Part shown: positions 1 through 4,231 of the stretch, piece by piece
Position numbering within the stretch: position 1 is the first letter of the stretch
How the letters are laid out: each line of letters opens with the position of its first letter
IMG/VR virus record: IMGVR_UViG_2713896789_000012
Origin: a virus
Lineage: Duplodnaviria > Heunggongvirae > Uroviricota > Caudoviricetes
Reading direction: 5' to 3' (one strand)
DNA length: 4,231 nucleotides
Notes under the pieces: model-generated
Database searches by the model: none
What the model was told of the DNA's origin: nothing
The model's input: only the letters and a program-made list of their open reading frames with translations
Made by a program: the position numbers and the translations under genes

Positions 1-498
1 TCAAAAAAACACGGTGTTTTCCGGGTGCTGCCGGTAAAAGGCGCATCTGTCTATGGCAAGCCGGTGATCACCATGCCAAAAACCCGCAATCAGCGGGGCG
101 TGTATCTGTGTGAAGTGGGGACGGACACCGCAAAAGAAATTCTCTATGCCCGTATGAAAGCCGATCCCACGCCTGCGGATGAAGCCACGTCGTATGCCAT
201 CCGTTTTCCTGATGATCCGGAGATTTTTTCGCAGACAGAGGCGCAGCAACTGGTGGCGGAGGAGCTGGTGGAGAAGTGGGAAAAAGGAAAGATGCGTCTG
301 TTGTGGGATAACAAAAAGCGGCGTAACGAAGCGCTGGACTGCCTGGTGTATGCCTACGCGGCATTACGTGTGTCTGTGCAACGCTGGCAGCTTGATCTGG
401 CTGTACTGGCAAAATCCCGGGAAGAAGAGACGACCCGGCCAACCCTGAAAGAACTGGCAGCGAAGCTGTCCGGAGGAGTGAATGGTTACAGTCGCTGA
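1..498 (+). CDS. A: Terminase large subunit, C-terminal fragment (5' end outside the window); lambda gpA-like
   Basis: Frame 1 is open from position 1 to TGA at 496-498. The translation (...KMRLLWDNKKRRNEALDCLVYAYAALRVSVQRWQLDLAVLAKS...) resembles the lambda gpA C-terminus as I recall it. It sits immediately upstream of a gpW-like gene, as in lambda. Confidence 0.85.
   Translation, partial: SKKHGVFRVLPVKGASVYGKPVITMPKTRNQRGVYLCEVGTDTAKEILYARMKADPTPADEATSYAIRFPDDPEIFSQTEAQQLVAEELVEKWEKGKMRLLWDNKKRRNEALDCLVYAYAALRVSVQRWQLDLAVLAKSREEETTRPTLKELAAKLSGGVNGYSR
472..477 (+). promoter_or_regulatory. Shine-Dalgarno for the W-like gene, embedded in the terminase 3' end
   Basis: GGAGGA lies 5 nt upstream of ATG 482. 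Confidence 0.6.
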
Positions 499-688
499 AC
501 TGCAGGCGCTGCGTCAGGCGCGCCTTGATTTATTAACCGGTAAACGGGTGGTGTCTGTCCAGAAAGATGGTCGCAGAATTGAATATACGGCGGCTTCTCT
601 GGATGAGCTTAACCGTGCGATCAATGATGCGGAGTCGGTACTGGGGACAACCCGCCGTCGCCGTCGTCCGCTGGGAGTGAGGTTATGA
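482..688 (+). CDS. W: Head completion / head-tail joining protein, lambda gpW-like (68 aa)
   Basis: ATG at 482 is preceded by GGAGG (472-476). The 68-aa product (..LTGKRVVSVQKDGRRIEYTAASLDEL..) is the same length as lambda gpW and shares its central GKRV-x-VQKDGRR motif. Its start overlaps the terminase stop by 17 nt and its stop overlaps the portal ATG. Confidence 0.85.
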   Translation: MVTVAELQALRQARLDLLTGKRVVSVQKDGRRIEYTAASLDELNRAINDAESVLGTTRRRRRPLGVRL

Positions 689-2270
689 AACGAACGCCTG
701 TCCTGATTGATGTGAACGGCGTTCCGCTTCGGGAGAGTCTCAGCTACCACGGGGGCGGTGCAGGATTTGGCGGGCAAATGGCGGAGTGGTTGCCACCGGC
801 GCAGAGTGCCGATGCGGCCCTGCTGCCCGCGTTGCGTCTGGGGAATGCCCGTGCAGATGATCTGGTACGCAATAACGGGATAGCGGCTAATGCGGTGGCC
901 CTGCATAAGGATCATATTGTCGGGCATATGTTTCTTATCAGCTACCGTCCGAACTGGCGCTGGCTGGGGATGCGGGAGACTGCGGCAAAAAGTTTTGTCG
1001 ATGAGGTGGAGGCGGCCTGGTCGGAATACGCAGAAGGGATGTTTGGCGAGATCGACGTGGAAGGGAAACGCACGTTCACGGAATTTATCCGTGAAGGTGT
1101 GGGCGTTCATGCCTTTAACGGCGAAATCTTTGTGCAGCCGGTCTGGGATACGGAAACCACGCAGTTATTCCGCACGCGTTTTAAAGCCGTGAGTCCGAAA
1201 CGGGTGGACACGCCAGGACACGGTATCGGGAATCGTTTTCTGCGGGCCGGGGTGGAGGTCGATCGATATGGCCGTGCCGTTGCGTACCATATCTGTGAGG
1301 ATGATTTTCCTCGCTCCTGGAGTGGACGATGGGAACGGATCCCGCGTGAACTTCCCACCGGGCGTCCGGCCATGCTGCATATTTTCGAGCCGGTGGAGGA
1401 CGGGCAGACCCGTGGGGCCAATCAGTTTTACAGCGTTATGGAACGGCTGAAGATGCTGGATTCCCTGCAGGCAACACAGCTTCAGTCGGCCATTGTTAAA
1501 GCCATGTATGCAGCGACGATTGAAAGTGAACTTGATACCGAAAAGGCCTTTGAATATATCGCGGGGGCACCGCAGGGTCAGCAGGATAATCCGCTTATTA
1601 ATATTCTGGAGAAGTTCTCCAGCTGGTATGACACGAATCATGTGACGCTGGGCGGTGTCAAAATTCCGCACCTTTTCCCCGGGGATGATCTGAAACTGCA
1701 GACCGCGCAGGATTCAGACAATGGATTTTCGGCGCTTGAACAGGCGCTGCTGCGGTATATCGCCGCCGGTCTTGGCGTTTCCTACGAACAGTTGTCCCGT
1801 GATTACTCGAAGGTCAGTTATTCAAGTGCCCGCGCCTCCGCCAATGAGTCGTGGCGCTATTTTATGGGACGACGAAAATTTATTGCAGCCCGGCTGGCCA
1901 CGCAGATGTTTTCCTGCTGGCTGGAAGAGGCACTTCTTCGGGGGATTATCCGTCCGCCACGGGCACGTTTTGATTTTTATCAGGCGCGTTCAGCCTGGTC
2001 GCGGGCAGAGTGGATTGGCGCAGGAAGAATGGCCATTGACGGGCTCAAGGAGGTCCAGGAATCAGTGATGCGCATTGAGGCCGGACTGAGCACGTATGAG
2101 AAAGAGCTGGCGCTGATGGGAGAGGATTATCAGGACATTTTCCGCCAGCAGGTCAGGGAATCCGCAGAGCGGGAAAAAGCCGGACTCTCACGTCCGGTGT
2201 GGATAGCACAGGCGTATCAGCAGCAGATAGCGGAGAGCCGCAGGCCGGAAGAGGAGACAACACCACGTGA
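685..2270 (+). CDS. B: Portal protein, lambda gpB-like; 3' end runs into the N run at 2271
   Basis: ATG at 685 lies in an ATGA overlap with the W stop. About 528 codons are open before the gap. Long stretches match lambda gpB as recalled (YHGGGxGFGGQ, GNARADDLVRNNG, FEPVEDGQTRGAN-FYSVME, LQSAIVKAMYAATIESELDT, LLRYIAAGLGVSYEQLSR, WIGxGRMAIDGLKEVQE, EAGLSTYEKE). The stop codon is not observed; the 2321..2343 extension in the ORF track is read-through across N and is not reliable. Confidence 0.93.
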
Positions 2271-2320
2271 NNNNNNNNNNNNNNNNNNNNNNNNNNNNNN
2301 NNNNNNNNNNNNNNNNNNNN
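2271..2320. other. Assembly gap 1 (50 N) at the portal 3' end / protease 5' end junction
   Basis: Run of exactly 50 n characters. The portal stop and the protease start codon are not visible on either side. Confidence 0.95.
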
Positions 2321-3468
2321 GACGAGTACATGGCCGGAGGTAAACGACCGGCCCGTGTTTACCGGGTGGTGAACGGTATTGCGGTACTGCCGGTGACCGG
2401 CACGCTGGTGCACCGGCTGGGTGGTATGCGGCCATTTTCCGGAATGACAGGCTATGACGGCATTGTTGCCTGTCTTCAGCAGGCAATGGCGGACACCTCT
2501 GTCCGGGGCGTACTGCTGGATATTGACAGTCCGGGCGGGCAGGCCGCCGGTGCGTTTGACTGCGCTGACATGATTTACCGCCTCCGGCAGCAGAAGCCGG
2601 TCTGGGCACTGTGNNNNNNNNNNNNNNNNNNNNNNNNNNNNNNNNNNNNNNNNNNNNNNNNNNGGAGTGGATATCACGCTGATTTATGCCGGGGCGCATA
2701 AGGTGGATGGCAATCAGTTTGAAGCCTTACCGGCAGAGGTGTGTCAGGACATGCAGCAGCGTATTGATGCGGCGCACCGGATGTTTGCCGAAAAAGTGGC
2801 GATGTATACGGGGCTGTCTGTGGAAGCTGTCACGGGGACAGAGGCTGCCGTTTTTGAAGGTCAGTCCGGTATTGAGGCCGGGCTGGCGGATGAGTTAATC
2901 AATGCGTCGGATGCCATCAGCGTGATGGCTGCGGCGCTGAACACACATGATACAGGAGGCACTATGCCGCAATTAACTGCAACNNNNNNNNNNNNNNNNN
3001 NNNNNNNNNNNNNNNNNNNNNNNNNNNNNNNNNCTTGCCACGATGCTGGCAGGACAACAGGGCATGAGCGTTGAACAGGCCCGGGCGATTCTGGCTGCGG
3101 CAGCACCACAGCAGCCGGTGGCATCCGCGCAGAGTGAAGCCGATCGCATTATGGCGTGTGAAGAAGCTAAAGGTCGTGAACAACTGGCGGCAACGCTGGC
3201 GGCGATGCCGGATATGACGGTGGAAAAAGCCCGCCCGATCCTGGCTGCTTCACCGCAGGCGGATGCCGGACCCTCACTCCGTGATCAGATTATGGCTCTG
3301 GATGAGGCAAAAGGGGCTGAGGCGCAGGCTGAAAAACTGGCGGCCTGCCCGGGAATGANNNNNNNNNNNNNNNNNNNNNNNNNNNNNNNNNNNNNNNNNN
3401 NNNNNNNNGTGCCACAGACGTCAGCAGACGGTGATGCGGACGTGAAAATGCTCATGGCCATGCCATGA
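2321..3468 (+). CDS. C: Prohead maturation protease (S49/ClpP-like, lambda gpC-like) with C-terminal scaffold domain; start codon unresolved, interrupted by four N runs
   Basis: Segments 2321-2613 (..VVNGIAVLPVTGTLV..FSGMTGYDGIV..GVLLDIDSPGGQAAGAFDCADMIYRLRQQKPVWAL) and 2664-2983 (GVDITLIYAGAHKVDGN..EAAVFEGQSGIEAGLADELIN..) match lambda gpC as recalled. Segments 3034-3358 and 3409-3468 continue into a scaffold-like tail ending at TGA 3466-3468. The reading frame differs between segments, consistent with placeholder gaps. Confidence 0.85.
2614..2663. other. Assembly gap 2 (50 N) inside the protease core
   Basis: Run of exactly 50 n. The flanking protein segments (..KPVWAL | GVDITLIY..) are separated by about 46 residues in lambda gpC as recalled, so the true missing length is probably near 138 nt; the frame also changes across the gap. 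Confidence 0.9.
2954..2959 (+). promoter_or_regulatory. Internal Shine-Dalgarno for the nested Nu3-like scaffold start
   Basis: AGGAGG lies 4 nt upstream of in-frame ATG 2964, inside the protease coding sequence. Confidence 0.5.
2964..3468 (+). CDS. Nu3: Putative nested scaffolding protein (lambda Nu3-like), in-frame internal start within the protease gene; interrupted by N runs
   Basis: A strong internal Shine-Dalgarno AGGAGG (2954-2959) precedes ATG 2964 (..TGGTMPQLTA..), at the position corresponding to where lambda Nu3 initiates inside C as I recall it (..SGGRMTKETQ..). The downstream region is Ala/Gln/Glu-rich and helical-looking. The frame relationship across the gap at 2984-3033 cannot be verified. 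Confidence 0.55.
2984..3033. other. Assembly gap 3 (50 N) near the start of the scaffold domain
   Basis: Run of exactly 50 n, 18 nt downstream of the putative Nu3-like start codon; the frame changes across the gap. Confidence 0.9.
3034..3358 (+). repeat. Degenerate tandem repeat (about 140-150 nt, roughly 47-50 aa per unit, about 2.5 copies visible) within the scaffold domain
   Basis: Protein level: ..GMSVEQARAILAAAAPQQ..ADRIMACEEAKGREQLAATLAA / MPDMTVEKARPILAASPQAD..RDQIMALDEAKGAEAQAEKLAA / CPGM[gap]. DNA level: ggcatgagcgttgaacaggcccgggcgattctggctgc (3061) versus gatatgacggtggaaaaagcccgcccgatcctggctgc (3211), with the next unit beginning near 3352. Both ends of the array abut N runs. Confidence 0.7.
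3359..3408. other. Assembly gap 4 (50 N) inside the scaffold repeat region
   Basis: Run of exactly 50 n interrupting the third copy of the scaffold repeat. Confidence 0.9.
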
Positions 3469-3488
3469 AGCCAGTGCTGACCATCAAT

Positions 3489-3494
3489 AGGAGG
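3489..3494 (+). promoter_or_regulatory. Shine-Dalgarno for the D-like gene
   Basis: AGGAGG lies 10 nt upstream of ATG 3505. Confidence 0.7.
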
Positions 3495-3504
3495 TTTTAA
3501 CAAT

Positions 3505-3956
3505 ATGGTGACGAAAACCATCACTGAACAACGTGCAGAAGTACGTATTTTTGCCGGTAATGATCCGGCTCATACCGCCACAGGCAGCAGCGGGATTTCT
3601 CAGGCAACACCGGCACTGACGCCCCTGATGCTGGANNNNNNNNNNNNNNNNNNNNNNNNNNNNNNNNNNNNNNNNNNNNNNNNNNAGGCAGCAGCGGGAT
3701 TTCTCAGGCAACACCGGCACTGACGCCCCTGATGCTGGATGAAGCCAGCGGGAAACTGGTGGTCTGGGACGGACAGAAAGCCGGTAGTGCGGCTGGCATA
3801 CTGGTACTGCCGCTTGAAGGCACAGAGACGGTGCTGACGTATTACAAGTCGGGGACCTTTGCGACGGAGGCAATCCGCTGGCCTGAAAGTGTGGATGAAC
3901 ACAAAAAGGCCAACGCCTTTGTCGGCACAGCCCTGAGTCACGCGGCGCTGCCGTAA
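3505..3956 (+). CDS. D: Head decoration protein, lambda gpD-like; as given, interrupted by a 50-N run plus a 54-nt duplicated flank
   Basis: AGGAGG (3489-3494) lies 10 nt upstream of ATG 3505. The N-terminal part (..NDPAHTATGSSGISQATPALTPLMLD) and C-terminal part (EASGKLVVWDG..YYKSGTF..WPE..AFVGTA..) match lambda gpD as recalled. Deleting positions 3636-3739 restores a single in-frame 115-codon ORF ending at TAA 3954-3956; lambda gpD is 110 aa. Confidence 0.88.
3582..3739 (+). repeat. Perfect 54-nt direct duplication flanking gap 5; most likely an unmerged contig overlap
   Basis: aggcagcagcgggatttctcaggcaacaccggcactgacgcccctgatgctgga occurs at 3582-3635 and again at 3686-3739. Both copies encode GSSGISQATPALTPLML(D) of the D-like protein in different frames, and collapsing them restores the ORF. 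Confidence 0.85.
3636..3685. other. Assembly gap 5 (50 N) inside the decoration-protein gene, flanked by identical 54-nt sequences
   Basis: Run of exactly 50 n. The 54 nt before it (3582-3635) and after it (3686-3739) are identical. Confidence 0.95.
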
Positions 3957-3963
3957 CACGTTA

Positions 3964-3985
3964 TCAGGCCACCGCGTTGGCCTGA
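3964..3985 (+). other. Intergenic stem-loop between the D-like and E-like genes
   Basis: tCAGGCC-accgcgtt-GGCCTGa forms a perfect 6-7 bp GC-rich stem with an 8-nt loop, 8 nt after the D stop and about 30 nt before the E start. There is no downstream U-tract, so it is unlikely to be a strong intrinsic terminator. Confidence 0.35.
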
Positions 3986-4013
3986 CTGATTTCTGAATGA
4001 AAGGAACTGATTT

Positions 4014-4231
4014 ATGGGATTGTTTACGACCCGCCAGTTACTCGGTTATACCGAACAAAAAGTGAAATTTCGTGCGCTGTTTCTGGAACTGTTTTTCCGC
4101 CGTACGGTGAATTTCCACACCGAAGAGGTGATGCTGGACAAAATTACCGGAAAAACGCCGGTGGCAGCCTATGTCTCCCCGGTTGTTGAAGGAAAAGTGC
4201 TGCGTCATCGTGGTGGTGAAACCCGCGTGTT
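4014..4231 (+). CDS. E: Major capsid protein, lambda gpE-like, N-terminal fragment (3' end outside the window)
   Basis: AAGGAA (4001-4006) precedes ATG 4014. The translation (MGLFTTRQLLGYTEQKVKFRALFLELFFRR..AAYVSPVVEGKVLRHRGGE) parallels the lambda gpE N-terminus as recalled (..TTAQLL..EQKFKFDPLFLRLFFRE..ALYVSPIVSGEVIRSRGG). It lies directly downstream of the D-like gene. Confidence 0.9.
   Translation, partial: MGLFTTRQLLGYTEQKVKFRALFLELFFRRTVNFHTEEVMLDKITGKTPVAAYVSPVVEGKVLRHRGGETRV

Follow-up and report, generated by a model that had tools for sequence, protein, structure and literature searches.

Tri-box repeat units in the protease/scaffold gene of a phage-21-type prophage, their copy number and a possible role in head assembly

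Nu3, the scaffolding protein of bacteriophage lambda, is needed for incorporation of the portal and is removed before packaging; the interactions listed for it are Nu3-Nu3, Nu3-C, Nu3-E and Nu3-B, and it may be degraded by gpC (PMC3224144). Our literature search found no structural paper on lambda Nu3 inside proheads. In phage 21, the GenBank record of the head operon (M81255.1) marks gene 6 with three features of the type repeat_region. These are named 'Tri1 box', 'Tri box' and 'Tri3 box', and carry the remark 'function unknown; putative'. Here we analyse the counterpart of this repeat in the S49-family protease/scaffold gene of a tailed-phage sequence, a stretch of 4,231 nucleotides (nt) from IMG/VR record IMGVR_UViG_2713896789_000012 (hereafter, the window), which is the head operon of a phage-21-type lambdoid prophage.

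Our description of the Tri boxes is taken from the feature table of the phage 21 entry. The paper tied to that entry is reportedly one by Smith and Feiss from 1993 (Gene 126:1-7). The window is colinear with M81255, at 91-96% identity per piece and 94.6% nucleotide identity over the region, in which phage 21 has genes 5 and 6 (head-tail preconnector gp5/gp6), and the Tri boxes fall on the repeat in the window: Tri1 box (1097-1200 of M81255, L001) at about 3008-3111, Tri box (1237-1347) at 3148-3258 and Tri3 box (1378-1491) from 3289 onward. Both loci have a protease/scaffold open reading frame (ORF) of 501 amino acids (aa), a nested start with its putative ribosome binding site (RBS), three units at matching positions, and neighbouring portal and decoration (shp) genes. 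They differ only by point substitutions, such as K versus N in the EAKGRE loop of unit 2. The copy in the window is an allele from a prophage and is interrupted by scaffolding gaps. Thus the repeat that a sequence-only reading of the window had noticed was already in the phage 21 record, as a triplication.

Lambda has the same gene order (B portal, C/Nu3, D, E), and its protein likewise combines an S49 domain, a nested in-frame scaffold gene, the unit motif (ENSRIMGILNCEEAHGREEQARVLAETPGMTVKTARRILAAAPQ) and a comparable C-terminal tail. In contrast to the three units of the window gene, lambda gpC/Nu3 has exactly one, at aa 360-400, as shown by a hidden Markov model (HMM) of the unit run with all filters off. 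The same search found no second or partial unit in lambda gpC, so the weaker partial copy that the sequence-only reading gives for Nu3 is not borne out. The lambda protein also has a longer, Ser/Thr/Ala-rich linker from protease to unit, and is 439 aa long compared to 501 aa for the window gene.

Three related units in the scaffold domain

In relatives of the window, which hold the bases that are missing here, the coding sequence (CDS) of the protease/scaffold gene is 1506 nt long. In this resolved protein the unit HMM, again with all filters off, gave exactly three matches, at aa 317-357 (73 bits), aa 368-407 (74 bits) and aa 415-451 (64.5 bits), with i-Evalues of 3e-22 to 3e-25; there was no fourth, cryptic unit. 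The pairwise Smith-Waterman scores among the units were 107, 85 and 103, while composition-preserving shuffles gave a mean of about 25 with a standard deviation of about 5 (z = 12-17), and 0 of 2000 shuffles reached the observed score. The HMM and the shuffles therefore bear out the repeated motif (..I-M-A-x-x-EAKGRE..LA..P-x-M-T-V-E-x-A-R-x-I-L-A-A) that had been described after the S49 core in this Ala/Glu/Gln-rich region. The repeat period is 47-53 aa (141-159 nt).

The units are much less alike in their DNA. Nucleotide identity between them is 53-65%, falling to 33-44% at third codon positions, and the longest exact direct repeat among them is 10 nt. A repeat search of the window returned mostly runs of N, plus seeds of 10-16 nt that lie 150-153 nt apart, and Tandem Repeats Finder (TRF) returned 0 rows, and hence no tandem array, on both the window and the resolved sequence of E. 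coli 89-3156 (L004). The claim that the repeat is visible at the DNA level thus holds only marginally, and in this lineage the repeat is a feature of the protein. The low identity and short exact words indicate that the duplication is old and has been maintained by selection on the protein. Units 1, 2 and 3 are, moreover, positionally orthologous within the phage 21 clade, down to relatives of about 42% identity, which also argues for an old triplication. As judged from this divergence, the triplication is an old duplication with saturated synonymous sites.

To describe the fold of the unit we used AlphaFold2. A single unit (unit 2, with an alignment of 33 sequences) was predicted with a mean local confidence (pLDDT) of 90.8 and a predicted template modelling score (pTM) of 0.70, as three short helices at residues 2-7, 15-23 and 29-38. 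This agrees with the helical content that had been expected for the repeat. When the whole 200-residue scaffold was modelled, pLDDT was 75-79 in the units and 50-64 in the linkers, with a pTM of 0.26. The model resembles helical beads without a fixed mutual arrangement, and has two short helices in the C-terminal tail. The unit is thus predicted to be an autonomous, compact three-helix module of about 40 residues.

Copy number and the runs of N

The window contains five runs of N, each exactly 50 nt long (2271-2320, 2614-2663, 2984-3033, 3359-3408 and 3636-3685). When the window was aligned colinearly with three relatives (phage 21, L001; PhiR12_1, L002; E. coli 89-3156, L004), the runs proved to stand, in order, for 170, 136, 73, 125 and -54 nt. 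As one uniform size stands for anything from 170 to -54 nt, the runs are fixed-size scaffolding placeholders of a fragmented draft; the pieces of sequence kept between them are only 227-325 nt long. Three of the five lie outside the repeat, at the portal/protease junction, in the protease core and in the decoration gene. Where the difference in length (for example, 73-50) is not a multiple of three, the apparent reading frame jumps, and the ORF listing breaks the protease/scaffold gene into fragments. The run in the decoration gene (3636-3685) is a false gap: the 54 nt at 3582-3635 recur exactly at 3686-3739, so that this gene is artificially split and partly duplicated. An overlap of 54 nt would be the k-1 expected from a de Bruijn assembly with k=55. 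The fragmentation probably stems from several related prophages in one genome. None of 12 IMG/VR relatives, found in a scan of viral contigs with 60-mers, has the 50-N gaps of the window, and one has an unrelated run of 2 N.

The two runs that border the repeat stand for 73 and 125 nt, so that neither reaches the length of one period (141 nt). The second of them hides the part of the gene in which unit 3 ends (TVENARAVLAAGSGKAE), followed by half of the C-terminal tail, its first (PVSASTTALFEHFMANHSPAAVQGG). In these relatives the two gaps therefore just complete units 1 and 3, which gives exactly three units with none hidden.

This count comes from close relatives. Positions 2664-3635 are matched at 100% in four closed E. 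coli genomes (89-3156, N51, JNEC-KY172 and CFIAFB20190157), of which 89-3156 was fetched and compared piece by piece. It agrees at 100% with all the non-N pieces of 2321-3635, as does one IMG/VR contig (L010), and 12 IMG/VR contigs share the same gap geometry. The length of 1506 nt was found for the orthologous CDS in 14/14 distinct sequences. In a spread sample of 60 closed-genome records, taken from 1875 matching records, 57 had the three-copy span; of the other three, two lack 57 nt and one matched only in part. The case for three copies in the source genome is thus very strong but indirect, as it is drawn from relatives that are 100% identical on the flanks.

Two other explanations of the array can be weighed against these data. 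According to the sequence-only reading, the N runs look like repeat-induced assembly collapse, and the true array may have more than three copies. Both flanking gaps do cut into units 1 and 3, and a related lineage has four copies that are more homogeneous, where TRF does detect a repeat, with a period of 138 nt and a 77% match. However, identical 50-N runs interrupt non-repetitive parts of the window, one of them being the false gap with its 54-nt overlap, and the units have at most 10 nt of exact sequence in common at 53-65% identity, so that a k-mer assembler could not have collapsed them. Relatives that are identical on all flanks hold less than one period in each gap, and the CDS length was the same in all 14 orthologues. 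Collapse is thus already largely refuted, and a larger array is very improbable; the N runs are unrelated to the intragenic repeat. It could also be argued that the copies resemble each other by chance, since the region is rich in Ala, Glu and Gln and TRF sees no tandem repeat in its DNA. Yet composition-preserving shuffles never reach the observed scores, the 40-residue motif recurs in 1283 cluster representatives (see below), and the unit is confidently predicted as a discrete folded module. The shuffles, the search of representatives and the unit HMM have already refuted chance similarity, to which we attach practically no weight. We conclude that the repeat is very probably real, three-copy and the one already annotated as the Tri boxes, with gaps that have nothing to do with it.

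Copy-number variants and the head operon

An alignment of 33 diverse units gave the consensus xxDxILAxxEAKGRExLAxxLAxxPGMTVEQAxxILAAAP, with invariant A11, G13, A18, L21, A22 and A32. When 1.84 billion cluster representatives were searched with the unit profile, 1283 proteins matched at E <= 1e-3, and the unit is thus found in more than 1000 protein clusters, in S49-protease/scaffold fusions and in some stand-alone scaffold-like proteins. Among the best 150 of the 1283, one unit was found in 137 proteins, two in 10 and three in 3; among full-length proteins (at least 380 aa), 51 of 53 had one. The distance from the last unit to the C-terminus was 39-67 residues in 50 of these 53 (115, 135 and 182 in the others), and in the window gene the last unit ends 50 residues before the C-terminus. 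Peptidase_S49 was present in 49 of the 50 full-length proteins that were scanned with Pfam. By these profile matches, lambda and most other S49-protease/scaffold fusions carry one module, and the phage 21 lineage carries three. Comparison of repeat counts with homologues, as had been suggested from the sequence alone, gives a copy number in nature of 1 to 4.

Variants are of several kinds. The two-copy proteins P0022, P0018 and P0015 arise by in-register deletions, and independent two-copy versions occur in distant lineages (P0177, P0123, P0132, P0154 and P0173). Some closed genomes have an in-frame deletion of 57 nt (19 residues) that lies within unit 2 and is bounded by two LAA motifs; its carriers are the S49 peptidase CDS of E. 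coli 50579417 (L021, NZ_CP033884.1), H109 and P0008/P0011/P0030, and P0011 alone represents 53 member sequences. At the other extreme, an E. coli variant with four units (P0027/L017 410-918; GCA_032727965.1, ABNWJB010000046.1) lies in a normal lambda-like head cluster. Here TRF detects the repeat in the DNA (3.7 copies), which points to recent expansion, homogenisation or concerted evolution in that lineage. The four-copy and two-copy variants thus share with the window gene the same unit, the same S49/scaffold context and the lambda-like head cluster, and differ in copy number. The four-copy lineage has units that are similar at the DNA level, in contrast to the old and diverged triplication in the window.

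Some unit-bearing sequences stand apart. A 223-aa protein (L019 5001-5672; GCA_001908235.1, LGHK01000125.1) has two units and no S49 protease domain. It is found in a compact, integrase-led island, next to proteins of 386 aa and 298 aa without PHROG assignment and a tape-measure-like gene, and may be the stand-alone scaffold of a small prophage or satellite-like element. There are two further short unit-bearing proteins, one on a short contig and one on a fragment flanked by insertion sequences. Three other matches among the representatives, P0127, P0117 and P0115, have lambda gpC fused to the lambda tape measure or to other lambda sequences, and look like cloning-vector or misassembly artefacts in public data.

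The features of the window are collected in the table. Pfam assigned Peptidase_S49 (PF01343) to aa 146-293 of the resolved gene 5 product with E = 6.9e-34, which places this ClpP/crotonase-like domain in the N-terminal two thirds. Outside the repeat, the only other Pfam matches in the resolved protein were sub-threshold ones to NfeD1b_N, CLP_protease and DUF7518. PHROG matches were to families of head maturation protease, head scaffolding protein and capsid assembly protein. The gene is annotated as 'S49 family peptidase' in NZ_CP027366.1 and as 'gp5' in M81255. As in phage 21 and lambda, its GTG start (2267-2270) and the 3' end of the portal gene overlap. The first N run masks this junction, and the ORF listing consequently runs the portal ORF through the Ns to 2343 (2331-2343).

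Gene 6 is predicted to start at the ATG at 2964 and to encode, when resolved, a protein of 200 aa (MPQLTAT...LMAMP, then stop). In M81255 the start of the nested gene is annotated together with a putative RBS (L001 1019-1023), which corresponds in position to window 2953-2957, and the gene 6 CDS of that record (L001 1030-1632) maps from window 2964 onward. Pfam, M81255 and the HMM thus all agree with the earlier proposal of a Nu3-like scaffold domain that is nested in an S49 protease gene and holds a helical unit in tandem copies. Since gene 6 lies in frame within gene 5, the abundant scaffold would share the three modules with the rare protease. The scaffold ends in a conserved C-terminal tail of about 45-50 residues, in which a short helix is predicted at DVKMLM.

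The protease/scaffold gene sits between a lambda-family portal gene and the decoration and major capsid genes, as seen from the ORFs. RefSeq annotation of an identical prophage gives the same order: portal, S49 peptidase, head decoration protein, major capsid protein. By megablast against a phage collection the window matched 20 records, every one an Escherichia phage, with 94-95% nucleotide identity to phage 21 and PhiR12-type phages. The region is present in 1870 of 5426 closed E. coli genomes (about one third), at no more than five places per genome. Identity to individual relatives varies along the window. The left arm (1-2270) is 99.56% identical to 89-3156 (L004) and 99.69% to L010, the middle pieces (2321-3635) match both completely, and the right arm (3686-4231) is 99.08% identical to both, yet 100% identical to contigs L006, L009 and L016. 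This patchwork suggests either that the prophage is naturally mosaic or that several related prophages of the source genome were merged into one consensus.

Table. Positions of the repeat units, the gaps next to them and the head genes in the window; rows in aa refer to the resolved protein
Feature	Position	Strand	Remarks
Unit 1 (Tri1 box), visible C-terminal two thirds LATMLAGQQGMSVEQARAILAAAAP, with Pro/Gln-rich linker	3034..3135	+	HMM core ends 3108
Unit 2 (Tri box), complete, EADRIMACEEAKGREQLAATLAAMPDMTVEKARPILAASPQADAGPS	3136..3276	+	HMM core 3139-3258
Unit 3 (Tri3 box), visible N-terminal ~27 residues LRDQIMALDEAKGAEAQAEKLAACPGM	3277..3358	+	Rest under next gap
Unit 1, resolved	aa 314-366		ENQRVMGILTCQEAKGREQLATMLAGQQGMSVEQARAILAAAAPQQPVASAQS
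Unit 2, resolved	aa 367-413		EADRIMACEEAKGREQLAATLAAMPDMTVEKARPILAASPQADAGPS
Unit 3, resolved	aa 414-461		LRDQIMALDEAKGAEAQAEKLAACPGMTVENARAVLAAGSGKAEPVSA
50-N scaffolding gap	2984..3033		73 nt in 100%-identical relatives, coding EAAAQENQRVMGILTCQEAKGREQ, the start of unit 1
50-N scaffolding gap	3359..3408		125 nt in 100%-identical relatives
End of conserved C-terminal scaffold tail, VPQTSADGDADVKMLMAMP, and stop codon	3409..3468	+	
Gene 5 (lambda C analogue), encoding an S49-family prohead protease with fused scaffold domain	2267..3468	+	501 aa when resolved; broken by four of the 50-N runs
AGGAGG Shine-Dalgarno of nested in-frame gene 6 (Nu3 analogue), putative	2954..2959	+	Sequence reading
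Gene 6, nested, Nu3-like scaffolding protein	2964..3468	+	In frame with C-terminal part of gene 5
Large terminase gene, 3' end	25-498		ORF listing and sequence reading
W-like head-tail joining gene	482-688		ORF listing and sequence reading
Lambda-family portal gene	starts 685		ORF listing
Decoration-protein gene (D/shp)	3505-3956		ORF listing
Major capsid gene, 5' part only	from 4014		ORF listing

Possible role of the unit

What might the module do? We propose that the unit is a conserved protein-protein contact element of the scaffold core, through which scaffold chains would associate with each other, dock to the portal or the inner face of the capsid protein, or do both. Since protease and scaffold share the unit, the protease would be co-targeted into the prohead by it. 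Triplication would then raise the valency and reach of each scaffold chain while leaving the design of the head unchanged. Taken alone, the binding mechanism has, in our view, somewhat less than an even chance of being right. The fuller proposal, in which scaffold and protease are both held to the capsid protein or portal by the unit as a docking element and copy number tunes scaffold valency, is more tentative, and we put it forward as a possibility only.

The pattern of selection fits folded modules strung on unconstrained, nearly neutral Pro/Gln/Ala-rich linkers: pN/pS (the ratio of nonsynonymous to synonymous polymorphism) across the 14 orthologous CDS rose from 0.12 in the protease core to 0.36 in the tail, 0.25-0.50 in the three units and 0.99 in the linkers, values that rest on few substitutions and non-independent pairs. 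Besides this limit, a number of points weigh against our overall reading. The extreme C-terminal tail could be the capsid-docking element, with the units serving only as an oligomerisation or spacer region. The head genes of lambda and phage 21 are homologous and have one and three units, respectively, and we know of no obvious phenotype that goes with this difference in copy number. The variant with the deletion may mean that unit 2 is dispensable, or that the head genes of those prophages are defective. No Pfam family and no solved structure was found to cover the unit in Pfam and Protein Data Bank (PDB) searches, the PDB sequence search giving only chance LacI matches (E ~ 1). Finally, the count of three comes from identical relatives, the source bases under the N runs being absent.

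Two alternative views of the unit bear on its function. In one, the units serve chiefly as a flexible spacer and as a substrate for the protease: they would set the length of the chain, cleavage sites in the linkers would let the prohead protease clear the scaffold, and specific binding would be confined to the C-terminal tail. It is favoured by the neutral evolution and predicted flexibility of the linkers, by the conserved position of the C-terminal tail across the family, and by the possible degradation of Nu3 by gpC (PMC3224144). The deletion inside unit 2, which occurs in closed genomes, keeps this view alive. On the other hand, a mere spacer would not retain a 40-residue motif with six invariant positions at about 25% overall identity, the units are under purifying selection, and a single unit is predicted as a folded domain. 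Motif conservation therefore speaks against what is the main functional rival, and we consider it unlikely. The other view looks to the C-terminal helix-turn-helix of P22 gp8. This domain, too, is small and helical and lies close to the C-terminus of a transient scaffold, and it is essential for coat binding according to a preprint (bioRxiv 10.1101/2022.12.13.520362); if the unit were homologous to it, the window protein would be a trivalent coat binder. The P22 domain, however, has two helices where the Tri-box unit is predicted to have three, is present in a single copy, and belongs to a protein with no fused protease. The Tri-box unit, moreover, is not terminal, as a tail of about 45 residues follows it. 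No sequence or fold similarity between the two was detectable, and we regard homology as improbable; docking to the interior of the capsid protein is a plausible functional analogy.

The Tri boxes have been public in the phage 21 record for some three decades, and are extremely common in E. coli prophages. The N runs carry a practical lesson, namely that fixed 50-N runs can shift reading frames and, in one case here, duplicate sequence. If the unit is a docking element, as we tentatively propose, then its copy number, which ranges from 1 to 4 with independent duplications in several lineages, would tune the kinetics or fidelity of assembly through valency. As a discrete module that is predicted to fold on its own and is present in one to four copies among lambda-like phages, the unit is a tractable handle on how scaffold and protease are recruited into lambda-type proheads.

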